DNA of 64,000 nt from Myxococcales bacterium. Its GTDB lineage: Bacteria; Myxococcota; Myxococcia; Myxococcales; UBA5297. The notes below the pieces were generated by a model, which worked only from the letters and a program-made list of their open reading frames with translations, was not told the DNA's origin and did not search any database. Numbering within the stretch: position 1 is the first letter of the stretch; every line of letters begins with the position of its first letter. Of the stretch, positions 5,328 to 20,881 are shown in pieces. A program made the position numbers and the translations under genes. The stretch is taken from the NCBI GenBank assembly GCA_050942745.1, contig JBMNNX010000004.1:2004-66003 (forward strand). Reading direction: 5' to 3'.

Positions 5328-6803
5328 ATGCGCATCCCGACCGAGCTTTACCGACCCTCGCTGGCGCTGCTGACCGACCTTTACCAGCTCACCATGGCTC
5401 ACGCGGCCTGGCGCGCGGGAGTCGCCGAGCAGGAGGCGGTCTTCCACCTCTTCTTCCGCAAGAACCCCTTCGGCGGCGGCTTTGCGCTCGCCTGCGGGCT
5501 CGACCCCGCGCTGGATCTCCTCGGCGGCCTCCGCTTCGACGAGGACGACCTCGGCTACCTGGGCAGCTTGACCGGCTCCGACGGCAAGCCGCTCTTCGCG
5601 CCCGAGTTCCTCGACTACCTGCGCGACACGCCGCTCGCGCTCGACGTCGATGCGCTGCCCGAGGGGACGGCCGTCTTCCCCCAGGAGCCGCTGATGCGCG
5701 TGCGCGGCCCCATCGTCGCCTGCATGCTCGCCGAGACCCCGCTGCTCAACCTGGTCAACTTCCAGACCCTGACCGCCACCAAGGCCGCGCGTATCCACCT
5801 CGCCGCCGGCGGCGAGCCGGTGCTCGAGTTCGGGCTGCGTCGCGCCCAGGGCATCGACGGCGCGCTCGCCGCGAGCCGCGCGGCCTACGTCGGCGGCTGC
5901 GCGGCGACCTCCAACGTCCTCGCCGGCCGGCTCTTCGGCATCCCGGTGCGAGGCACCCACGCGCATAGCTGGGTGATGCTCTTCGACGACGAGCGCGAAG
6001 CGTTCGATGCCTACGCGCGGGCGATGCCCAACAACTGCGTCTTCTTGGTCGATACCTACGACTCGCTCGAAGGCGTGCGCCGCGCGGTCGAGGTCGGGCG
6101 CTGGCTGCGCGAGCACGGCCACCAGCTCCACGGCATCCGCCTCGACTCGGGCGATCTCGCACAGCTCAGCGTCGAGGCCCGGCGCATCCTCGACGAGGGC
6201 GGCTTCCCCGAGGCGCGCGTCTACGCCAGCAACGATCTCGATGAGGAGGTCATCGCCAGCCTCAAGAGCCAGGGCGCGGCCATCGCGGTCTGGGGCGTGG
6301 GCACCCGGCTCGTCACCGCGCACGGCGATCCTGCGCTCGGCGGCGTCTACAAGCTGGCCGCCGTGCGCCGGCCCGGCGAGCAGTGGCGCTACCGAATCAA
6401 GGTGTCCGAGCAGGCGATCAAGACCTCGACCCCGGGCATCCTGCAGGTGCGCCGCTTCGAGCTCGGCGGCCGGTGCGTCGCCGACGGGATCTTCGACGAG
6501 CAGCAGGGCTGGTGCCCGGGGCCCGAGCGCGTCGTCGTCGATCCGCTGGAGCCGACGCGGCGCACGCGGATTCCCGCCGAGGCCGAGGCGCGAGACCTGC
6601 TCGTCCCCGCGCTGCGAGCCGGCCGGCGCGTGCTCGCGCCCGAGCCGCTCGCCGAGACCCGGCGCCGCGCCCAGACCGAGCTCGCCGCGCTGCCGGTCGG
6701 GGTGAAGCGCTTCCTCAACCCTCACCTCTACCCGGTCGGCCTCGAGCCGGGGCTCCACGAGCTGAAGACGAGGATGATCCTCGAGGCCAGGAGGCCCGCA
6801 TGA
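5328..6803 (+). CDS. pncB: Nicotinate phosphoribosyltransferase
   Basis: ORF 5292..6803. Family-typical LLTDLYQLTMAHAAW, FGLRRAQG, GTHAHSW, FLVDTYD, GIRLDSGD. I prefer the start at M13 (5328) because AAGGAGG lies at 5316-5322 and the ATG at 5292 sits inside the palindrome. Confidence 0.93.
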   Translation: MRIPTELYRPSLALLTDLYQLTMAHAAWRAGVAEQEAVFHLFFRKNPFGGGFALACGLDPALDLLGGLRFDEDDLGYLGSLTGSDGKPLFAPEFLDYLRDTPLALDVDALPEGTAVFPQEPLMRVRGPIVACMLAETPLLNLVNFQTLTATKAARIHLAAGGEPVLEFGLRRAQGIDGALAASRAAYVGGCAATSNVLAGRLFGIPVRGTHAHSWVMLFDDEREAFDAYARAMPNNCVFLVDTYDSLEGVRRAVEVGRWLREHGHQLHGIRLDSGDLAQLSVEARRILDEGGFPEARVYASNDLDEEVIASLKSQGAAIAVWGVGTRLVTAHGDPALGGVYKLAAVRRPGEQWRYRIKVSEQAIKTSTPGILQVRRFELGGRCVADGIFDEQQGWCPGPERVVVDPLEPTRRTRIPAEAEARDLLVPALRAGRRVLAPEPLAETRRRAQTELAALPVGVKRFLNPHLYPVGLEPGLHELKTRMILEARRPA

Positions 6804-8767
6804 AGCTCGTCAAAATCGCCGCCGCCGCGCTCAACACCCCCCCGCTCGACTGGAAGGGAAACCTCGACAAGGCGCTCGCGTGCATCGAGGAGGCCCGCGC
6901 GCAGGGCGCGAGCCTGCTGTGCCTGCCCGAGCTGTGCCTGCCCGGCTACGGCTGCGAGGACGCCTTCCACGCCCGCGGGGTCCAGGAGCGCGCGCTGCGC
7001 TCGCTCGAACAGATTCTGCCCGCGACGCGCGGGATGGTCGTCTCGCTCGGCCTGCCGCTGGCGTACCAGAACGCGCTGCTCGACGCCGCTTGCCTCATCG
7101 CCGACGGCCGGCTGCTCGGGTTCGTGCCCAAGCAGCACCTCGCCGGCGACGGCATCCACTACGAGCCGCGGTGGTTCAAGCCCTGGCCGGCCGGCCGGCG
7201 CGCGAGCGTGACGTTCGCCGGCGAGCGGGTGCCGCTGGGCGACCTCGTCTTCGAGGTCGGCGGGGTGCGCCTCGGCTTCGAGATCTGCGAGGACGCCTGG
7301 GTCGCCCAGCGCCCCGGCGCCGCGCTGGCGCGGCATGGCGTAGACATCATCCTCAACCCCAGCGCGAGCCACTTCGCCTTCGGCAAGCGGGCCATCCGCG
7401 AGCGCCTGGTGGTCGAGGGCTCGCGCGCCTTCGGCGTCAGCTACGTCTACTCGAACCTGCTCGGCAACGAGGCGGGGCGTGTGGTCTACGACGGCGGCAC
7501 GCTCCTCGCCTCCGGCGGACGGATCATCGCGCGCGGCCCGCGCTTCTCCTTCCTGCCGACGCGGGTGACGAGCGCGGTCATCGACGTGGACGCCACGCGG
7601 ACGGTGCAGGTCCGCACCGCCAGCTTCGAGCCGGACTTCGCCGCCGACGAGGGTTGCGTGCGCGCGCACTTCGGGTGGCCGAAGGTGGCGCTCGAGGCCT
7701 CGCGGCCGGCGCCCGAGCCGATGGACACCAAGGAGGAGGAGCTCGCCCGCGCCGTCGCGCTCGGCCTCTTCGACTATCTGCGCAAGAGCCACGCCGAGGG
7801 CTTCGTCGTCTCGCTGAGCGGCGGTGCCGACTCCTCGGCGGTCGCCTCGCTCTGCGCGCTGACGGTGCAGCTCGCCTGGGCCGAGCTCGGGCGCGAAGGC
7901 TTCGCCGCAGCGCTCTCGCACGTGCGCGGGATAGGCGAGGCGGCGAGCGCGCGCGATGCGGTCCGCCGGCTGCTCACCTGCGTCTATCAGGCGACACGCA
8001 ACAGCACCGACACCACGCGCAACGCCGCCCGCACCCTCGCCGAGGCGCTCGGCGCCGAGCACATCGAGCTCGACGTTGAGGCGATGGTCGCCGGCTACCG
8101 GGCGCTGGTGGAGAAGGGAATCGGCAGGTCGTTCGACTGGGCGACCGACGACCTGACGCTGCAGAACATCCAAGCTCGGGCGCGCGGGCCGAGCGTCTGG
8201 ATGATCGCCAACGCCCGCAACGCGCTGCTGCTCGCCACCAGCAACCGCTCCGAGGCCGCGGTCGGCTACGCCACGATGGACGGTGACACCTGCGGCGGCC
8301 TGAGCCCCATCGCCGGCGTGGACAAGGCCTACCTGCGCCACTGGCTGCGCTGGCTCGAGAAGACCGGGCCCAAGGGGCTGCACCCCATCCCCGAGCTCGA
8401 GGCGGTCAGCGCCCAGGCGCCGACCGCCGAGCTGCGCCCGCCCGACAGCAATCAGACCGACGAGGCGGACCTCATGCCGTACGAGGTCCTCGACGCCATC
8501 GAGCGCTTCGCCAGCCGCGACAAGCAGCTACCGCTCGAGGTCTACGCGCGGCTCGTGGCTGAGTTCCCCGCCCGCGAGCCGCGGCAGCTCGCCGCCTGGG
8601 TGGTTCGCTTCTTCAGGCTCTGGTGCCGCAACCAGTGGAAGCGCGAGCGCTACGCGCCCTCGTTCCACCTCGACGACGAGAACCTCGACCCGCGCTCCTG
8701 GTGCCGCTTCCCGATCCTGTCGAGCGGGTTCGAGGAGGAGCTCGAAGAGCTAACGAAGAACATATAA
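6800..8767 (+). CDS. nadE: Glutamine-dependent NAD+ synthetase (CN-hydrolase plus NAD synthase domains)
   Basis: In frame within ORF 6383..8767. Starts MKLVKIAAAALNTPPLDWKGN...LPELCLPGYGCED (nitrilase-like domain), then SLSGGADSS (PP-loop). The ATG at 6800 overlaps the pncB TGA (ATGA). Confidence 0.93.
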   Translation: MKLVKIAAAALNTPPLDWKGNLDKALACIEEARAQGASLLCLPELCLPGYGCEDAFHARGVQERALRSLEQILPATRGMVVSLGLPLAYQNALLDAACLIADGRLLGFVPKQHLAGDGIHYEPRWFKPWPAGRRASVTFAGERVPLGDLVFEVGGVRLGFEICEDAWVAQRPGAALARHGVDIILNPSASHFAFGKRAIRERLVVEGSRAFGVSYVYSNLLGNEAGRVVYDGGTLLASGGRIIARGPRFSFLPTRVTSAVIDVDATRTVQVRTASFEPDFAADEGCVRAHFGWPKVALEASRPAPEPMDTKEEELARAVALGLFDYLRKSHAEGFVVSLSGGADSSAVASLCALTVQLAWAELGREGFAAALSHVRGIGEAASARDAVRRLLTCVYQATRNSTDTTRNAARTLAEALGAEHIELDVEAMVAGYRALVEKGIGRSFDWATDDLTLQNIQARARGPSVWMIANARNALLLATSNRSEAAVGYATMDGDTCGGLSPIAGVDKAYLRHWLRWLEKTGPKGLHPIPELEAVSAQAPTAELRPPDSNQTDEADLMPYEVLDAIERFASRDKQLPLEVYARLVAEFPAREPRQLAAWVVRFFRLWCRNQWKRERYAPSFHLDDENLDPRSWCRFPILSSGFEEELEELTKNI

Positions 8768-8823: not shown

Positions 8824-9111
8824 CCGAAAAGGTGCACGGCCGTGCGTCAGGTCGAACCGGCCGCAGAGACGGTCCGTCCTCAATTCGCGTTCCGCGCAAC
8901 GAGATCGCGAGCGCCGCCACCGAACGTCGGAGGGCCCTTACGTGAAACGACCTGCGCAATCGAGGGCCGGAGGTCCGGCGTCCTGCCGGCCAGCCTTCGC
9001 GTAGTGGTTGCCATGTTGACGCGTGACCGGGCCGTCGAGAAGGCGGCTCTCCCACCTCGTCGCTGCGCGCGGCCTGTCTCGGCTGGCAGCGCGCGTGCGC
9101 TGGAACGAGGC

Positions 9112-9480
9112 GGCCCTTCGACTCCGCCCCCGCCGCTAGCGCGTCGGGAGCTACGCTCAGGGCGAACGGAGCAGGGCCCAAGCTCGGTGGCGCGGCCCTT
9201 CGACTCCGCTCCCGCCGCTGTCGCATCGGGAGCTGCGCTCGGCGAACGGAGTAGGGCCCGAGCTCGGGCGGCCCTTCGACTCCGTTCCCGCCGCTGTCGC
9301 GTCGGGAGCTACGCTCAGGGCGAACGGAGCAGGGCCCGAGCTCGGGGTGGCCCTTCGACTCCGCTCCTGCCGCTGACGCGCCGGGAGCTACGCTCAGGGC
9401 GAACGGAGTAGGGCCCGAGCTCGGGATTGCCCTTCGATCCCGCCGCCGCCGCATCGAGCGCCGCGCTCAGGGCGAAGGGG
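9112..9480. repeat. Tandem array of a 76-82 bp hairpin-forming intergenic repeat (family A), about 4.7 copies
   Basis: Units start at 9112, 9194, 9270, 9349 and 9429 (ggcccttcgactccg...cgggagctacgctcagggcgaacggag...gggcccgagctcgg). Each has an imperfect inverted repeat (ctccgttcccgc / gggcgaacggag). The last copy contains the stop and final codons of the RND gene. Confidence 0.85.
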
Positions 9481-12400
9481 CGAGGCCCTCCTGCTGAGCC
9501 TTGCGCTCCGCGGTAAGCACGTAGAGCGCCGGCAGCAGTACCAGCGTGACCAAGGTCGAGACCACCAGCCCGCCGACGATCACCCGCGCCAGCGGCGCCT
9601 GGATCTCGGCGCCCTCGCCGATAGCCAGCGCGATGGGGAGCATCGCCAGGACCGTCGTCAGTGTCGTCATCAAGATGGGCCGCAAGCGCTCGCGGCCGGC
9701 GCCGACGATGGCCTCCAGGACGCCCAGGCCCTTCTCGCGTCGCAGGAAGTTGGCCGCGTCGACCAGCACGATGGCGTTGTTGACCGCGATGCCCACCAGC
9801 ACGATGGCGCCGAGGAAGGCGTTCAGGCTGAAGGTCGTGCCGGTCGCCAGCAGGATGAGCACCACGCCGACGAGGCCGAAGGGCACCGCCGACATCACGA
9901 TGAGCGGGTCGCGCAGCGACTCGAACTGCACGGCCATCACCGCGAAGACGAGCAGCACCGCCAACAGCAGCCCCGTCCCCAGCCCGCTGAAGGTGCTCTG
10001 CTGCTCGCGGGCCTCGCCGCCGATCTCGACGCTGAAGCCGGGCGGCAGCTCGATTCCCGCCAGCGCGGCCTCGAGGTCGGCGACGACCGCGCTCAGCTCC
10101 CGGTCGCCCAGCCCGCCGACGATGGAGACCATGCGCTCCTGGCCAGACCGCTCGATGGAGGCCGGGCCGCGCCGCTTGCCAATCTGCGCCACCGCCGACA
10201 GCGGCACGACCCCGCGCGACGAGAGGATGGGCAGGCCGCCGAGCTGCTCGGTCCGCTCGCGGTCGGCCTCGCGAAGCACGACGCGCAGGTCGTACTCGTC
10301 GCCCGCCTGCCGAAAGCGCGTCGCCACCCGGCCCAGCAGATAGGTCTCGAGCGTCTGCGCGATCTCCGGCCGGGTGAGCCCCAGGTCCGCGGCGCGCGCG
10401 GTGTCCACGACGACCGTGCGCTCCTCGAGCCCCTCCTCGCGGCTGATACGCACGTCGGCGATCCCCGGGACGGTGCCCATCAGCGCCTCTATCCGCCGCG
10501 CCAGGCGCGCCGCGTCGTCGAGGTCGTGCCCGCGCAGCTCTACCACCAGCCGCTCGCCCTGCCTGCCGCGCATGAAGCGCTGCAGCGGATTGGTGGTGCG
10601 CTGGCGCAGGCGGATGCGCACGTCGGGGATGCCGCTGGTCGCCTTGCGCATCGCATCGAGGATCTCGGCGCTGCCGCGCTCGCGCTGCGACACCGGGACC
10701 AGCGTCAGCTCGACCTCGCCTTCGTGGCCGCCGCCAGGCCGGTAGGGGTTATCCGGGCCCGCCGAGCTGACGACGTTGGCTATCTCCTCGGGCCGGCAGA
10801 CCGAGCGCATCCGCCGCTCGATCTCGCGGACCACCTCGCGCGTGCGCTCGACCGGTGTGCCGACCGGCAGCTCGAGATCGAGGTCGATGACGCCCTCGTC
10901 GGTCTGCGGCATCAGCTCGAGCGGCACGGCGGGCAGCAGCCGCAGCGCGAGCAGCAGCATCGCCAAGGAGCCGGCGATCGTCAGCCACGGCTGGCGCAGG
11001 GCGGCGCGCAGCGCGCGGGCGTAGAGGCTCTCCATCGCGTGCTGCCAGCGCTCGAGCCGCTGCGCCAGCCGGGCCAGGAGCCCGCCGCCTTTGCCGAATG
11101 GACGATCGAGCAGGCGCGCGGCCAGCGACGGCACGAGGGTGACGGCGACGACCAGCGAGCAGGCGAGCGCGAAGACCACGACCATCGCCAGCTCGGCGAA
11201 GAAGATGCCGGCGAAGCCGCCGAGGAACACCACCGGCGCGAAGGCCACCACGGTGGTGAGCGTGCCCGCGATGATGGCCCCGGCGACCTCGTGGGCGCCC
11301 TCGATGGCCGCCCGCACGGCAGGCAGGCCCTCCTCGCGCTTCCGGTAGATCTTCTCGAGGATGACGATCGAGTTGTCGACGAGCATCCCGACCCCGAGCG
11401 CGAGCCCGCCGAACGAGATGAGGTTGAGCGAGTAGCCGGCGAAGTACATCAGCGCGAAGGTCGCCATCATCGAGAAAGGAATGGAGAGCGCGATGACGAA
11501 GGTCGCGCGCAGGTTGCGCAGAAAGAAGAGCAGCACCAGGACCGCGAGCAGCGCCCCGCTGAGCGCCGAGTCGCGCACGTTGGTGATCGAGGCGCGGATG
11601 TAGCTCGCGGTGTCCTGGACGACGATGACCCGAAGGCGCCCCTGGTACTCCTCGTTGATGCGCTTGATCTCCTCCTTGAGCGTCTCGACCACCTCGACGG
11701 TGTTCGCGCCCGACTGCTTGGAGACGCGCATCACGATGCCCGGCGCCTTGTCGACCCACTGCTCGCTGCGAATCTCCTGGAAGGTGTCGCTCACGGTGGC
11801 GACGTCGCGCACGTAGACCGGGCGCGCGCGCCCGGCGTCGCCGTCGCGGGCGGGCAGGCGGGTGACGAGGACGTTCTCTATCTCTTCGACCGAGGAGAGC
11901 TCTCCGAGCGTTCGCACCAGCACCTCGCGCCCGGACTCGCCGAGGTCGCCGGCGGCGACGTTGCGGTTGTCATTCGCGAGCGCCTGCACGACCTGCTCGC
12001 CAGTGACGCCCAGCGCGACGAGCCGGGCGAGGTCGAGCTCGACGCGCAGCTCGCGGACGCGGCCTCCGTTGACCCTCACCGCGGCGATGCCCGGCAGGCG
12101 CTCGAGCCGGCGGGTGAGGACCTCGTCGGCCAGGTAGCGCAGGCGGCGCGGGTCGCCGCCGCCGCTCAGGCCCAGGGTCGCGATGGGAGTCGCCGAAATG
12201 TCGAACTTGAGGACTGTCGGCGAATCTGCGTCTTCGGGCAGCCGCGCCCGCAGCCGGTCGAGCGCCTCGCGCACGTCGCTGGCGGCACCGTCGAGATCGG
12301 TGCGCCACTCGAACTGGAGCTGCACCCGCGACAGGCCCTCGGAGGACTCGGCCTCGAGCGCGGTGACCCCTGAAACCGTCGAGACCGCCTGCTCGATAGG

Positions 12401-12595
12401 GCGAGTGATGAGGTTCTCGATCTCCTCCGGCCCCACGCCCTCGTAGCGGGTGACGACGTTGATGCGCGGGAAGTCGACCTCAGGCAGCAGATCGACCGGC
12501 AGGCGGGCCATGCCCACCGCGCCGAGGATGCAGACCGTCGCCGCGAAAACCCCGACGCCGATGGGCCTGCGGACCGAGGTCGAGATTAGGCTCAT
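9467..12595 (-). CDS. RND efflux transporter permease (AcrB/HAE family)
   Basis: 1042-aa ORF with typical RND architecture and sequence (MSLISTSVRRPIGVGVFA..., 12-TM pattern, two large periplasmic loops). Confidence 0.95.
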   Translation of the reverse strand: MSLISTSVRRPIGVGVFAATVCILGAVGMARLPVDLLPEVDFPRINVVTRYEGVGPEEIENLITRPIEQAVSTVSGVTALEAESSEGLSRVQLQFEWRTDLDGAASDVREALDRLRARLPEDADSPTVLKFDISATPIATLGLSGGGDPRRLRYLADEVLTRRLERLPGIAAVRVNGGRVRELRVELDLARLVALGVTGEQVVQALANDNRNVAAGDLGESGREVLVRTLGELSSVEEIENVLVTRLPARDGDAGRARPVYVRDVATVSDTFQEIRSEQWVDKAPGIVMRVSKQSGANTVEVVETLKEEIKRINEEYQGRLRVIVVQDTASYIRASITNVRDSALSGALLAVLVLLFFLRNLRATFVIALSIPFSMMATFALMYFAGYSLNLISFGGLALGVGMLVDNSIVILEKIYRKREEGLPAVRAAIEGAHEVAGAIIAGTLTTVVAFAPVVFLGGFAGIFFAELAMVVVFALACSLVVAVTLVPSLAARLLDRPFGKGGGLLARLAQRLERWQHAMESLYARALRAALRQPWLTIAGSLAMLLLALRLLPAVPLELMPQTDEGVIDLDLELPVGTPVERTREVVREIERRMRSVCRPEEIANVVSSAGPDNPYRPGGGHEGEVELTLVPVSQRERGSAEILDAMRKATSGIPDVRIRLRQRTTNPLQRFMRGRQGERLVVELRGHDLDDAARLARRIEALMGTVPGIADVRISREEGLEERTVVVDTARAADLGLTRPEIAQTLETYLLGRVATRFRQAGDEYDLRVVLREADRERTEQLGGLPILSSRGVVPLSAVAQIGKRRGPASIERSGQERMVSIVGGLGDRELSAVVADLEAALAGIELPPGFSVEIGGEAREQQSTFSGLGTGLLLAVLLVFAVMAVQFESLRDPLIVMSAVPFGLVGVVLILLATGTTFSLNAFLGAIVLVGIAVNNAIVLVDAANFLRREKGLGVLEAIVGAGRERLRPILMTTLTTVLAMLPIALAIGEGAEIQAPLARVIVGGLVVSTLVTLVLLPALYVLTAERKAQQEGLAPSP

Positions 12596-13839
12596 CGCCC
12601 CGCCTCCGCGCCCGGCGGCGACTCGGCGATTCGAACCGGTGCGCCGTCGGCGAGGTCGGTGTGGCCGGCGACGAGGACGCGCGCCGCGTCGGGGAGCTTC
12701 GCCTCGATCGCCGCGCGGTCGCCGTCGCGGGCGACGACGACGGCCGGGACCCAGCGGGCCACTCCATCGACCATGACGAACAGGCCGCTCTCGACCTTGC
12801 CTGTCGGTTGCAGCCGGGTCAGCACGGCGATGCCCGGGACGACGGTGGCCTGCGCGAGCTCGCGCCGCACGACGACGACCTCGGCGTATCTGCCCGGCAG
12901 CCAGGAGGGCGGCGGCGACTCGACGAGCGCCTCCACGGTGACGATCCGCTGCTCGCGGCTGACCTCGCCGGCGATGCCGGTGATCTTCGCGGGCAGGCCT
13001 TCGCCCGACTCGAGCGCTGCGCCCTGCGTGTGGCCGGCGGCAGCTCCGGCGAACACGCGCACCGTCGCGCTGACCTCGAGGCCGCCGATGTCCATCTCGG
13101 GCACCTGGAAGCGCACGCGCAGCGGCGAGGTCGCCACCAGGCGCACCAGCCGCGCGCCGGCCTGCACGATAGCGCCGGGATCGACGTAGCGATCGGCGAT
13201 GCGCCCGGCGAACGGCGCGCGCACCTTGCTCTCGACGCTGCGCTTGTCGAGCAGGCGCACCCGCGCGCGGGCCTCGGCGCCGCTGGCGGCCGCGGCGTCG
13301 GCTGCTGCCGCCAACGCCGCCACCTTTGCCCGCTGCTGCGCGAGCTCTTGGTCGCTGACCAAGCGCTTGGCGGCGAGCGGCTCGAGGCGCGCGGCCTCCT
13401 CGGCGGCGAGGTCGTGCTCGACGCGGGCCCGCTGCTCCTCGGCCGCCCGGGCGGCCACCTGAGCCTCGGCTTCGGCTATCTGCTCGCGAGCGTCTACGGG
13501 GTCGAGCTCGGCGAGGACCTGGCCGGCGCGGACGGTGTCGCCGACGCGGACGTGCACCGCGACCAGGCGGCCCGGGTAGAAGGCCGAGATGTCGGCGGCG
13601 TCGGCGTCGAGCTCGCCGGGATAGCTGCGCCGCTCGGTGATCGAGGCGCGGGTCACCTCGGCGACGGCGACCGGGATGACCCGCGGGCCTGCGCCTCCTT
13701 GGCCGCCCGGAGCGCGCTCTTTCGAGGAGAAGGCGAACGACGCGCCGATGGCCGCGACGCCCAGGGCCACGACGGCCCAGCCGAGCCGCGAGCGCAAGCG
13801 TGAGGGTTCAGGTGCGGTGTCGATCGAGGAGACGGGCAT
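12592..13839 (-). CDS. RND efflux periplasmic adaptor (membrane fusion protein, HlyD family)
   Basis: 415-aa ORF with an N-terminal TM anchor, a coiled-coil hairpin (AEAEAQVAARAAEEQRARVEHDLAAEEAARLE) and beta-barrel regions. Its TGA overlaps the RND ATG (12592-12595). Confidence 0.9.
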   Translation of the reverse strand: MPVSSIDTAPEPSRLRSRLGWAVVALGVAAIGASFAFSSKERAPGGQGGAGPRVIPVAVAEVTRASITERRSYPGELDADAADISAFYPGRLVAVHVRVGDTVRAGQVLAELDPVDAREQIAEAEAQVAARAAEEQRARVEHDLAAEEAARLEPLAAKRLVSDQELAQQRAKVAALAAAADAAAASGAEARARVRLLDKRSVESKVRAPFAGRIADRYVDPGAIVQAGARLVRLVATSPLRVRFQVPEMDIGGLEVSATVRVFAGAAAGHTQGAALESGEGLPAKITGIAGEVSREQRIVTVEALVESPPPSWLPGRYAEVVVVRRELAQATVVPGIAVLTRLQPTGKVESGLFVMVDGVARWVPAVVVARDGDRAAIEAKLPDAARVLVAGHTDLADGAPVRIAESPPGAEAGR

Positions 13840-14046
13840 CGAGTTGCGCCGGAGTGTCGATGATGGGGCCGCTGGATGCGACGGGCCGGCGGTGAGAGCC
13901 GAAGCGCCCGCGCGTGGGCGTCACCGTAGCACAAGGGGGGCGGGCGCGAGGCGCCTGAAGTCGACTCGGCAAGGACGCTCCGGGCCTCTCGGCGGGCAAG
14001 CAGCAGACCGAATTCTTGGCATGGCGGTCAGATCGGCGGCTCGCGG

Positions 14047-14270
14047 CCACTAATTTAGTTCCGAACGGGGTGGGCACCCTCCGCTGGGAACTAATTTAGT
14101 CCCGGAGCGAGGCTCCCTCGCCCGTTCGAGAACCAAAACTGATAGAAATCGGGCGTTCAGGCCGCCCGCTCGAACGAAATTAGTTCCCGAGTGGCCTCGG
14201 CTATCTCGGTCTCGAACTAAATTAGTTCGCGGCAGGTCAGCCCCCCTTCGACTCGAACTAATTTGGTTCC
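14047..14270. repeat. Periodic array of 15-16 bp AT-rich palindromes (consensus GAACTAATTTAGTTC)
   Basis: Copies at 14047-14062, 14087-14102, 14172-14187, 14214-14228 and 14255-14270. A degenerate candidate lies at 14130-14145. Centre-to-centre spacing is about 40-42 bp. The array lies between the efflux operon start (13839) and the upstream gene end (14497). Confidence 0.8.
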
Positions 14271-14496
14271 CCGCGGCGTGGACCGATGAGCCCCAGTCTT
14301 CGGCAAAGCAGCGGACCGGACGGCGCTTCGTCCCTCCTGCCTCGGGTTTCCTCCAGGAGAAAAATGGACGGCGGAGCTCCAGCTGGACGGCGGAGCTCGC
14401 CAGCCTAAGCTCGCTCGTAGAGACCCGCAGGCGGCTCGTTGCCGAGCTCAGCGAAGGCGAAACGAATCGGGCACTGCGGAGCTGGGCGGCGCCGCT

Positions 14497-15891
14497 TCAA
14501 GTCGGCTCGAGCGGCGTGTCGAACGTTCCCCAAGCGCGTAGCGTCTGGCCTGCCCGGATCCCGGCGCCTTGGATGACGATCTCGAATTGTCCGGAGACTC
14601 GGGACGACGAGTAGGTCGCCTCCAGCCACCAGCGAGTGACCTCATCGCCGCTCTCGGCGATGCCGCAACGCCGGAAGTACAGACTCTGCCAAGCCAGGGG
14701 GAGGCTCGCCGCGAAAGTGCTCCAACCGTTGTCGTGGGTGTCGAAACGCAGAATTGCGCCCGGCGGGTCTTGGCAGTTGATGGTGATTGTGCCTCCTGCC
14801 GAGGCGCCGCTGACGCCGAACTCCAGGTTGGGTGCCCAGTACGGCATTTGGATGGCTGCAAAATCGGACGAGACCCCGTATTGCGCGAGAATGCTCGTGC
14901 CCTGAGCGAGCACCGTCCCGTCGAGCGCCCAGGTCATGAGGTTGGGCGAGTCGACGCATTGGCCCTGGTCCGAGCATACATAGGGCGCGTTGCAGGAGCC
15001 GCAGTTGCCCCCACAGGCGCTCATGCCGCACTCCCTCCCTCCGCACGAGCAGCACTCGTCGCCCTGGCAGCCACGCTCGCCGCAGCTCTCCTTGATTTCC
15101 ACTCTCGAGCCGCGGCAGTCGAACCACCAGACGTCGCCGAGCTCGCATGCGTACGTCACGTGCGCGTCCTCGTCGCAGGTGCAGAACCCGTTGCGGCAGG
15201 TCGTGCCGGGGCCCACGCAGGAAGCGCCCTCACAGCAGAGCTGCCCGGCGTTGCCGCAGGGCTGACAGTAGCCCGCAACGCAGGCGAGGCCCGTGTTGCA
15301 GGTCAAGCCTACGCAGCAAGGCTGTTCGCGGGCGCCGCAGGAGGTGGTCGCTTGGCAGACCCCGCCGACGCAGGAGAGGCCTGTGTTGCAGGCTGAGCCT
15401 GCGCAGCACGGCTGCCCGCTGGAGCCGCAGGAGGTGGTCGCTTGGCAATACCCGCCGACGCAGGAGAGACCCGTGCTGCAGGCTGAGCCTGCGCAGCAGG
15501 GCTGCCCGCTGGAGCCGCAGGCGGTGGTCGCTTGGCAAAACCCGCCGACACAGGAGAGGCCCGTGTTGCAGGCCGAGCCGCTGCAGCACGGCTGCCCGCT
15601 GGCGCCGCAGTCGGTGGCGCCTTGGCAAGTCCCGCCGATGCAATCGAGGCCCGAATTGCACGCGGTGCCGTTGCAGCAGTCCTCGCCACTTCCGCCACAA
15701 GAGCCTTCGGCCTGGCACCTGCCAAAGGAGTCACAGGTCTCGCCGGGATTGCAGCCCGGTGAGCACTCACCGCCGCAGCCGTCGTGGCCGCAAACGCGCT
15801 CATCGCAGTGCGGGACGCATGCGTCCGCCAAGTCAGAGGTCGAGTCGCACGCCGCGAGGGCCAGCGCGAGCAGGAAAACGCTGTGCTTCAT
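14497..15891 (-). CDS. Secreted cysteine-rich repeat lipoprotein
   Basis: ORF 14497..16032 trimmed to M48 (15891), which has the RBS aagggggaccgcccATG. Signal/lipobox MKHSVFLLALALAAC. About six tandem 33-aa units CG.SGQPCC.GSAC.TGLSCVGG.CQATT (roughly nt 15105-15702). C-terminal non-repeat domain. Confidence 0.8.
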   Translation of the reverse strand: MKHSVFLLALALAACDSTSDLADACVPHCDERVCGHDGCGGECSPGCNPGETCDSFGRCQAEGSCGGSGEDCCNGTACNSGLDCIGGTCQGATDCGASGQPCCSGSACNTGLSCVGGFCQATTACGSSGQPCCAGSACSTGLSCVGGYCQATTSCGSSGQPCCAGSACNTGLSCVGGVCQATTSCGAREQPCCVGLTCNTGLACVAGYCQPCGNAGQLCCEGASCVGPGTTCRNGFCTCDEDAHVTYACELGDVWWFDCRGSRVEIKESCGERGCQGDECCSCGGRECGMSACGGNCGSCNAPYVCSDQGQCVDSPNLMTWALDGTVLAQGTSILAQYGVSSDFAAIQMPYWAPNLEFGVSGASAGGTITINCQDPPGAILRFDTHDNGWSTFAASLPLAWQSLYFRRCGIAESGDEVTRWWLEATYSSSRVSGQFEIVIQGAGIRAGQTLRAWGTFDTPLEPT

Positions 15892-15992
15892 GGGCGGTCC
15901 CCCTTCTGTCAAAAGGCGGCGAGGATACCCGACGGCCCACCGCCGAGACCAGGGCCGAGGCCTACCCTCCGCCGCTGCCCTGGCCACTTTAC

Positions 15993-16035
15993 ATCGTGTC
16001 GTGATGACACTAAGATGGTGTCGAAAAAACACGAA
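15993..16035. promoter_or_regulatory. Two adjacent predicted NrtR operators (ATCGTGTC-gtgat-GACACTAA and ATGGTGTC-gaaaa-AACACGAA)
   Basis: Sites at 15993-16013 and 16015-16035, each with a GTGT-N7-ACAC core like the pncB site. They lie directly upstream of the nrtR RBS and ATG (16047). Confidence 0.6.
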
Positions 16036-16046
16036 GGAGCGAGCGG

Positions 16047-16736
16047 ATGAGCTACACCTACGAACACCCCCGCCCCGCGCTGACGGTCGACTGCGTCGTC
16101 TTCGGCATGGACGACGAGGACCTGAAGGTCCTGCTCATCGAGCGCGGCGTCGAGCCCTTCAAGGGACGCTGGGCGCTGCCCGGCGGCTTCGTGCAGCTCG
16201 ACGAGAGCCTCGAGGACGCGGCGCGCCGCGAGCTGAAGGAGGAGACCGGGCTCGAGAAGGTCTTCCTCGAGCAGCTCTACACCTTCGGCGAGCCCGGGCG
16301 CGATCCGCGCGGGCGCGTCGTCTCGGTCGCCTACTACGCGCTGGTGAAGCTGGCCGACTACACGGTTCAGGCGGCTACCGACGCCAGCGGCGCGGCCTGG
16401 TTCCCGGTCTGGGACACGCCCTCGCTCGCCTTCGACCACGGGCGCGTCCTCGAGACCGCGCTCGAGCGGCTGCGCGGCAAGGTGCGCTACAAGCCCTTGG
16501 GCTTCGAGCTGCTGCCGCCGAAGTTCACGCTCACGCAGCTCCAGCGGCTCTACGAGAAGATCCTCGAGCGCCCGCTCGACAAGCGGAACTTCCGCAAGAA
16601 GGTGCTCGCGATGGACCTGCTCATCGAGACCGACGAGGTCGAGCAGGACGTCGCCCACCGCGCGGCGCGCCTCTATCGCTTCGACCAGAAGAAGTACCGG
16701 GCCCTGGAGAAGAAGGGCTTCAACTTCGAGCTGTAG
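16047..16736 (+). CDS. nrtR: NrtR-family Nudix-related transcriptional regulator (Nudix domain plus C-terminal winged helix)
   Basis: 229 aa. Intact Nudix box [24 protein letters not shown]. The C-terminal part ([27 protein letters not shown]...RLYRFD) is typical of the NrtR wHTH domain. Palindromic operators lie upstream of it and of pncB-nadE. Confidence 0.85.
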
Positions 16737-20561: not shown

Positions 20562-20589
20562 CGGGCCGGCGAGACGCCGAGTCTCCCAA

Positions 20590-20881
20590 CCTCGGCGGCG
20601 GTCGACGGGAGGAAAGAACGAAGGGGAGGCGAGCAAACCGACTGGAGGGCGGAGCTCCAGGTGCGCCACCGCCGGTGCCCGGCGCGAGCGCTCGAGCAGC
20701 GTGGGCGGGACGGAGGCGGTCGCAGGCTGGGCCGGCGGGACCTCGGTGGCGTTCGACGGGCGGAGGAGAAGCAAGGGGAGGCGACCAAACCGATGGAGGG
20801 CGGAGCTCCGACTCCGCCACCGCCGGTGCCCGGCGCGAGCGCTCGAGCAACGTGAGCAAGACCGAGGCGGTCCCAGGCTGG
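20590..20881. repeat. Tandem duplication of a ~140-bp intergenic unit (copies 20590-20729 and 20741-20881)
   Basis: Both copies read cctcgg.ggcg.tcgacggg...aaggggaggcga.caaaccga.tggagggcggagctcc...gccaccgccggtgcccggcgcgagcgctcgagca...aggcggtc.caggctgg. Related motifs occur at 14364-14400 and 24326-24385. Confidence 0.8.

Follow-up and report, generated by a model that had tools for sequence, protein, structure and literature searches.

A phased array of AT-rich palindromes shared by two Myxococcales genomes, and its possible role as a docking site for a dimeric DNA-binding protein

The locus and its neighborhood

The window, meaning the whole 64,000-nucleotide stretch of DNA from a Myxococcales bacterium that was analysed here, has a GC content of 71%, and the genes scanned in it include those of chemotaxis proteins, histidine kinases, a TonB receptor, an NAD synthase and transporters. 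On the minus strand it contains an operon for an RND-type periplasmic adaptor (100% identical to NCBI MGI5860625.1, 'MAG: Myxococcales bacterium') and an RND pump. The adaptor gene starts at 13839 and the preceding gene, for a lipoprotein with Cys-rich repeats, ends at 14497, both as given in an earlier note made from the sequence of the window. The space between them, the sole long intergenic region of the operon, is occupied by six regularly spaced units, five of which carry a good 15-bp palindrome. The features of the locus are as follows.

9467-12595, minus strand: RND pump gene, after the adaptor gene (Pfam ACR_tran)
12592-13839, minus strand: gene of the RND periplasmic adaptor (Pfam HlyD_3), on the downstream side of the array and 208 bp from it
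14031-14269, minus strand: whole array, six ~42-bp units (palindrome plus GC-rich spacer) and ~16 nt past the last palindrome; homologous to positions 2107-2346 of the metagenome locus L049 described below (blastn; the nhmmer alignment spans 14269-14031)
14255-14269: unit 1 (counted along the minus strand), GAACTAATTTGGTTC, 1-2 mismatches
14214-14228: unit 2, GAACTAAATTAGTTC, a perfect palindrome with the same sequence as unit 2 of L049
14172-14186: unit 3, GAACGAAATTAGTTC, 1-2 mismatches
14130-14144: unit 4, degenerate, GAACCAAAACTGATA, with one GAAC/GTTC half-site; 8/15 positions equal those of unit 4 of L049
14088-14102: unit 5, GAACTAATTTAGTCC; the next spacer on the minus strand (14062-14087) is 85% identical to its L049 counterpart
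14047-14061: unit 6, CCACTAATTTAGTTC, 2-3 mismatches
14497-15891, minus strand: gene of the Cys-rich-repeat lipoprotein (signal MKHSVFLLALALAAC), ending 227 bp upstream of the array and co-directional with the operon

The lipoprotein gene consists in part of 90-bp (30-aa) Cys-rich coding repeats (GQPCCAGSACNTGLSCVGGxCQATTxCG), has no Pfam match, and looks atypical in its GC3 beside the neighbouring RND genes. The earlier note had stated that no TetR/MarR-type regulator is encoded next to the pump, which is correct for those two families but passes over an NrtR-type Nudix regulator (NUDIX and NrtR winged-helix domains, 16047-16736) located 2.2 kb from the array. The NrtR operator is a 21-bp palindrome with the core GT-N7-AC (PMC2330246), and directly upstream of the NrtR-type gene lies a GT-N7-AC palindrome (GTGTCGTGATGACAC, ~15997-16011) that fits the published core and is a candidate for the gene's own operator; a second similar site, GTGTCGAAAAAACAC, is found just upstream of the gene start (window 15990-16736). 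Together with a gene for glutamine-dependent NAD synthase (6383-8767), 7-10 kb away, the NrtR-type gene and its sites probably form a local NAD regulon.

Other repeats are present in the window. Immediately downstream of the RND pump stop codon, at 9109-9452, is a 79-bp tandem repeat (4.4 copies, 87% matches), each unit of which holds a GC-rich hairpin (CTCCCG...CGGGAG); it lies inside a 234-aa open reading frame that has no Pfam match and is probably spurious, the repeat being non-coding, since three does not divide a period of 79 bp. An intergenic tandem repeat with a period of 151 bp (20589-20881, 1.9 copies) bears GGAGGGCGGAGCTCC; this motif is seen again, as TGGACGGCGGAGCTC, in two copies 19 bp apart in the stretch that separates the lipoprotein gene from the array (14365-14398). 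GGAGGGCGGAGCTCC and TGGACGGCGGAGCTC may belong to a dispersed GC-rich repeat family of the window's genome.

Sites and spacing

Five copies of GAACTAAWTTAGTTC with at most 2 mismatches start at 14047, 14088, 14172, 14214 and 14255, against a chance expectation of 0.05 matches; this count was reached in none of 100 dinucleotide-preserving shuffles of the window. A search with GAACTAATTTAGTTC at up to 3 mismatches returns the same five starts and no further site in the 64 kb, each site matching on both strands because the motif is palindromic. The start-to-start distances are 41, 84 (2 x 42), 42 and 41 bp, and the 84-bp gap contains the degenerate unit (GAACCAAAACTGATA), which retains one GAAC half-site in exact 42-bp register. 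The mean unit spacing of 41.6 bp corresponds to about four turns of 10.4 bp. The earlier description of five clear copies and one degenerate candidate, with centres about four helical turns apart, thus holds throughout the array. Runs of six or more A/T are rare in the window, numbering only 12 in 64 kb, and five of them are the array centres. An independently assembled Logan contig (L076, SRR28624435) is 100% identical to the window across 13830-14510, so the array is not an assembly artefact.

A homologous array in a second Myxococcales genome

When genomes, one for each species, were scanned for pairs of ACTAAWTTAGT cores separated by 22-34 bp, at least 48 loci were listed, among which the only true relative is L001, from an uncultured Myxococcales MAG of 67% GC. 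The L001 contig is the same as metagenome locus L049, and a further locus, L050, represents a strain 99.4-99.7% identical, so that all three derive from one organism. Two-site pattern scans of genome, metagenome and viral contigs brought up nothing else of relevance among the matches listed, which otherwise comprise unrelated AT-rich repeats, IscR operator pairs, Bacteroidetes 42-bp repeats, eukaryote-like satellites and a 22-bp repeat of Treponema. These scans demanded two perfect cores, and more diverged arrays would therefore escape them. Searches with nhmmer, using one profile for the complete array and another for a single unit, found no new copies in any of the retrieved loci, and blastn found no similarity to the array in plasmid and phage collections.

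The L049 array (2107-2346) has six 42-bp units, of which the fourth is degenerate, as in the window. By blastn, window positions 14267-14031 on the minus strand align with L049 positions 2109-2346 on the plus strand at 68% identity over 240 bp (111 bits, versus 67 bits with the two arrays in opposite orientation), and the homology ends at the array edges. When the spacers are placed in register and compared ungapped, they are 49.5% identical, a value that none of 2000 shuffles of the spacers attains (29.4 +/- 3.4% after shuffling), which indicates common descent of the two arrays and not convergence. Apart from the 85% identity of spacer 5, orthology spacer by spacer is not individually significant (permutation 69/720). 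In the window the spacers have diverged too far for Tandem Repeats Finder (TRF), but in units 1-2 of L049 they are still evident tandem copies (TRF period 42, 83% matches). Judged from these alignments, the spacers of the array stem from a 42-bp tandem unit and are homologous between the two genomes, contrary to the earlier claim that they are unique.

Some of the other matches deserve description. A protein search with the translated open frame of the array gave a sole and weak match (P0121, E = 0.07), a 501-aa hypothetical protein on a 27-kb metagenome contig that carries many ~300-aa open reading frames without Pfam matches, as in giant-virus contigs. P0121 has four 14-aa repeats ERPCGTNLVSERDA and later four repeats SASLSETKLVPGGR, which, when back-translated, are compatible with 42-nt units bearing GGAACTAATTTAGTTTCC in opposite orientations. 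In Bacteroidetes/Cytophagia MAGs of 30% GC (L047, 9-320; L004, 1167-1560), 42-bp tandem repeats containing CAACTAATTTAGTTT are intergenic beside housekeeping genes; they have the same period and core as the array, but their units are near-identical and their context is AT-rich, and the resemblance is probably coincidental. Marine metagenome loci (L051, 1205-1650; L053, 43-545 and 2705-3045) contain dense 20/40-bp GAACTAAATTAGTTT arrays beside CA/GT and CT microsatellites, which look like eukaryotic satellite DNA and are unrelated to the myxobacterial array.

Conservation of the palindromes

Between the window and L049, the palindromes are identical at 65/75 positions (87%) versus 87/152 (57%) for the spacers (Fisher p = 5e-6). 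Across the ten good units, information of 1.3-2.0 bits is found solely at positions -7 to +7, and the dyad symmetry likewise stops at +/-7. The AT-rich 7-mers are retained amid DNA of ~70% GC, and the weak fourth unit keeps its register in both genomes, which suggests that the spacing itself is constrained. These observations point to selection as having kept the palindromes against the GC mutational pressure of these genomes, selection being deduced here from one pairwise comparison because just two independent occurrences of the array are known, that of the window and that of L001/L049/L050.

It is an unlikely alternative that the array is a functionless relic, left by an ancient tandem repeat of 42 bp or by a small element of the mobile or foldback kind, and received by transfer or descent. 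The persisting tandem spacers of L049, the other intergenic tandem repeats of the window's genome (79 bp and 151 bp) and the unrelated gene contexts of the two arrays would all suit such a relic, but neutral decay fails to explain why palindromes are so much more conserved than spacers, why AT-rich 7-mers are held under GC pressure, or how a 41-42 bp register is kept across a degenerate unit. A mobile or foldback element (MITE) is typically dispersed in many copies, with inverted repeats at its ends and target-site duplications; the array occurs once in the window and once in L049, with no second copy in either and none in any other retrieved locus, and neither terminal nor flanking duplications are seen.

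RNA, coding and promoter readings

It is scarcely plausible that the array acts as transcribed RNA, whether in a 5' or 3' UTR as an element of several hairpins, as a sponge for proteins or as an antitoxin of the ToxI kind. The folding z-scores of -4.2 to -6.1 and a terminator-like hairpin inside units 3/4 (14168-14150, minus strand) are in its favor, but such z-scores are obtained for both strands of both arrays: the strands fold equally because the palindromes pair among themselves, which reflects symmetry at the DNA level and no strand-specific RNA signal. Each stem is moreover a weak A/U helix of 5-6 bp, the substitutions within the palindromes are non-compensatory (for example CCAC..GTTC, GAAC..GTCC and GAACG..AGTTC), and Rfam contains no match to the array by gathering score or even at E <= 1, so a known structured RNA was rejected. 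A type III toxin-antitoxin system of the ToxI kind, in which near-identical tandem repeats precede a terminator and an endoRNase toxin gene, was likewise set aside: the units of the array share only the 15-mer, and what lies downstream is an RND adaptor gene or a restriction-modification (RM) island and no toxin-like gene.

A 130-codon open frame spans the L049 array, and 42 bp would correspond to 14 codons, but no common reading frame survives the alternation of spacings of 41 and 42 bp or the single-nucleotide indel by which L049 and L050 differ; the open frame is therefore considered a by-product of the 42-bp period, and a coding repeat was rejected. A sigma-70 scan found no promoter. A sigma-54 enhancer was dropped from consideration, as the two loci share no -24/-12 element and the matches are weak, the best candidate in the window (CGGTCTGCTGCTTGCC) having 5 mismatches. 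The non-compensatory substitutions, the lack of a frame, the symmetric folding and the empty Rfam result together suggest that the palindromes are double-stranded DNA sites for a symmetric dimer. Of the interpretations in the earlier note, it is the general one, of phased palindromes bound by a protein, that is best supported, and the specific roles it suggested (operator of the RND operon, iterons, centromere) are not supported.

Relationship of the array to the adjacent genes

That the array is a dedicated operator or enhancer of the adaptor-pump operon, controlling efflux, is quite improbable. In favor of this proposal of the earlier note are the position of the array 208 bp upstream of the adaptor start, in the operon's only long intergenic region, and the lack of an adjacent TetR or MarR gene. 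Local control of the TetR/MarR type, for which a neighbouring regulator gene would be expected, was rejected. Four homologous adaptor-pump operons (L055, the P0004 contig, L077 and L078; 61-63% identity) have only 38-73 bp of intergenic DNA upstream and upstream genes that differ from those of the window, and the motif is absent from 3/3 of those whose DNA was examined; pumps of this family thus do not have the array as a conserved operator. In the 14.5 kb of L049, moreover, no efflux genes accompany the homologous array. A local effect of the array on the pump in the window's genome, as a by-product of its position, is still conceivable.

The L049 genes are, in order, those of a Uma2 nuclease and an unknown 300-aa protein, followed after the array by HsdM, HsdS, an AAA ATPase, an unknown protein, a fusion of HsdR with peptidase S24, LarB and LarC. 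None of the proteins encoded by the 14.5 kb of L049 is shared with the window (blastp of open reading frames, E limit 1e-4). The type I restriction operon, which starts 250-450 bp from the array, belongs to an island that has been transferred widely: Dokdonella, Burkholderia, Polyangiaceae, Corallococcus and others have an HsdM 86-93% identical to that of L049, and such identity across Gammaproteobacteria, Betaproteobacteria, Myxococcota and Thermoanaerobaculia implies frequent horizontal transfer. The island (L049 2741-12735, and L073, L074 and L075) is of type I, with a C-terminal peptidase S24 (LexA-like) domain on HsdR and with variable inserts such as an AAA/AbiEii-like ATPase, an M78 peptidase with DUF4411, and RhuM. 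The array is absent from the three other copies (L073-L075), whose homology with L049 starts only at ~2590-2810, downstream of the array, which places the array outside the island; a tie between the array and the RM operon was therefore rejected.

Both arrays have the same orientation and are flanked by genes that run in one direction; the stop codon of the upstream gene precedes the array by 168-227 bp, and over 200 bp separate the array from the gene that follows. Because the downstream genes are wholly different and the L049 operon is a later island insertion, no target gene can be named. Taken together, the two loci suggest that the array is most likely an inherited block of at least two Myxococcales lineages and not an operator dedicated to the RND pump. 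The locus also illustrates that a conspicuous motif directly before an operon does not have to be a part of it; here it is the comparison of genomes that separates the array from the pump.

A putative docking array for a dimeric protein

The interpretation to which we assign the greatest weight, with a probability of roughly one half, is that the array acts in cis as a series of docking sites, to which a dimeric, sequence-specific DNA-binding protein with its gene elsewhere in the genome binds cooperatively on one face of the helix. It would provide six places for docking, of which five are good 15-bp palindromes and one, in the middle, is weak; dimers of a single protein would fill the five strong palindromes, and the weak fourth unit would serve as a spacer or as a position of low affinity. 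As the centres are 41-42 bp apart, that is four turns, the dimers would share one face of the DNA and could touch, making a cooperative nucleoprotein complex of ~240 bp possible. Since both arrays lie between co-directional genes, we infer that the complex most likely gates transcription into the downstream operon, which may arrive from the upstream gene or start in the intergenic region. Against this docking model are the lack of a candidate binder gene beside either array, the lack of a detected promoter, and a spacing of four turns, which exceeds the two or three turns of Lrp-type arrays. A tblastn search of the window and L049 detected no homologue of Rrf2, and no Lrp/AsnC gene is present among the genes scanned.

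The array might instead organise the chromosome, as a centromere-like or nucleoid-protein loading array from which a spreading or bridging protein nucleates, or as a landmark for island insertion, although we consider this improbable. In its favor are an architecture parallel to that of sopC (PMC3177203), an apparently single copy in each genome sampled, a structure kept while the flanking genes turn over, and the start of the type I restriction island within 250-450 bp of the L049 array. On the other side, no ParA, ParB, Rep, SMC-related or mobility genes are among those scanned in the window and L049, there is no plasmid or phage similarity, and GC skew reveals no replication landmark. With no Rep, ParA or ParB gene among those scanned, no plasmid or phage similarity and ordinary chromosomal surroundings, the earlier note's suggestion of iterons or a centromere finds no backing. 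A more specific version, which we regard as a long shot, is that the array is the nucleation site of an undescribed chromosomal nucleoprotein structure in Myxococcales: by analogy with SopB on sopC, an oligomerising protein would load on the six in-phase palindromes, but on a chromosome and without ParABS, and the site would pass down the lineage as a fixed landmark amid changing neighbouring genes and defence islands.

The palindromes, their phasing, their shared ancestry and their greater conservation than the spacers are shown by the two sequences, and protein binding, cooperativity and any effect on transcription at the array are proposed from them; with two known occurrences, the array is at present a well-characterised lead, not a discovery. 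Should it serve as a loading site with cooperative binding, its six repeats of a 15-bp palindrome, one every four turns, would be a clean sequence-defined bait for its binder.

Comparison with known systems

In the literature searched, the 11- to 13-mers of the array and GAAC-N7-GTTC have just a chance overlap with a Vibrio HlyU footprint oligonucleotide. Replication iterons are direct repeats of 17-22 bp with a spacing of about two turns, near a rep gene and DnaA boxes or an AT-rich unwinding region; the array was excluded from this class because it is palindromic at 41-42 bp and has neither a long AT-rich tract nor a rep or dnaA gene in its neighborhood. It is also not a CRISPR array, in which repeats of at least ~23 nt and hypervariable spacers accompany cas genes or a leader, the conserved repeat here being just 15 nt, the spacers being homologous between two genomes, and no cas genes having been found. 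The NrtR operators resemble it in that an NrtR-type regulator is encoded near the array of the window and the palindromes are of similar length, but the array reads AC-N7-GT, the inverse of the NrtR core, and L049 has no NrtR gene nearby, so that this assignment was rejected.

Operators of Lrp/AsnC proteins have the form abcdeWWWedcba, sometimes with a weak middle site (Ss-LrpB, E. coli Lrp), and resemble the array as clustered imperfect AT-centred palindromes on one face of the helix. In Lrp-type arrays the phased AT-centred palindromes are bound cooperatively on one helix face with wrapping of the DNA, but their spacing is two or three turns (PMC2995911), versus four (41-42 bp) in the array.

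The IscR type-1 operator, with a 25-bp consensus of ATASYYGACTRWWWYAGTCRRSTAT (PMC3899308), has an 11-bp core, ACTAAWTTAGT, that is identical to that of the array, is palindromic with an AT-rich centre, and also occurs in multiple sites. Its flanks differ, being YG..CR, whereas the array has GA..TC at +/-6 and +/-7 and its conservation falls short of 25 bp; and IscR sites come in twos at 35 bp, whereas the array has six at 42 bp, away from isc, suf and Rrf2 genes. Such IscR-like pairs are found among the pattern matches as TGACTAAWTTAGTCA, 35 bp apart, in Acinetobacter, Oxalobacteraceae and others, located upstream of an Rrf2 regulator and the cysteine desulfurase IscS in Acinetobacter (L011) and beside or upstream of SufB in Massilia (L032). 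Paired 27-bp palindromes of the form AATACTTGACTAAWTTAGTCAAGTATT, likewise 35 bp apart, are present in L011 (2754-2799), in L032 (5033-5078) and in about ten more loci (L005, L014, L018, L023, L028, L041, L045 and others). By motif and position, the TGACTAAWTTAGTCA/AATACTTGACTAAWTTAGTCAAGTATT pairs are IscR type-1 operators. Neither array is located at a promoter of Fe-S biogenesis or regulator genes. The exact core shared with IscR sites indicates that a winged-helix dimer can read such a core, and an Rrf2/IscR-type winged-helix dimer as the binder of the array is a motif-level lead only.

Among partition sites, parC of plasmid R1 consists of two iteron blocks around a central promoter region, made of 11-bp direct repeats at one-turn spacing beside parMR. 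Like R1 parC, the array has two blocks of sites split by a non-consensus centre (three units, the weak unit, and two units); unlike it, the array consists of palindromes at four-turn spacing, with no partition genes among those scanned. In ParB/SopB centromeres in general, tandem or clustered inverted repeats are bound by a ParB-type protein and are linked to parA/parB (sopAB) genes or located on a plasmid or near an origin; the array has repeats of such an architecture, with no ParA/ParB domains among the genes scanned in the window and L049 and no plasmid or phage similarity.

In architecture, the nearest known object is sopC of the F plasmid, in which a 43-bp direct repeat occurs 12 times and SopB binds the 16-bp inverted repeat present in every copy (PMC3177203). 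The 12 units of sopC are near-identical and lie beside sopAB on a plasmid, whereas the array is chromosomal, its six units have spacers that diverged, and no ParA/ParB genes are among those scanned. Both consist of tandem units of about four turns (43 versus 41-42 bp), each with one short inverted repeat (16 versus 15 bp), the DNA around which is less constrained. If the array of these Myxococcales is a cooperative loading site, its binder would give access to a system of regulation or chromosome organisation in a little-studied, uncultured lineage of the Myxococcota.
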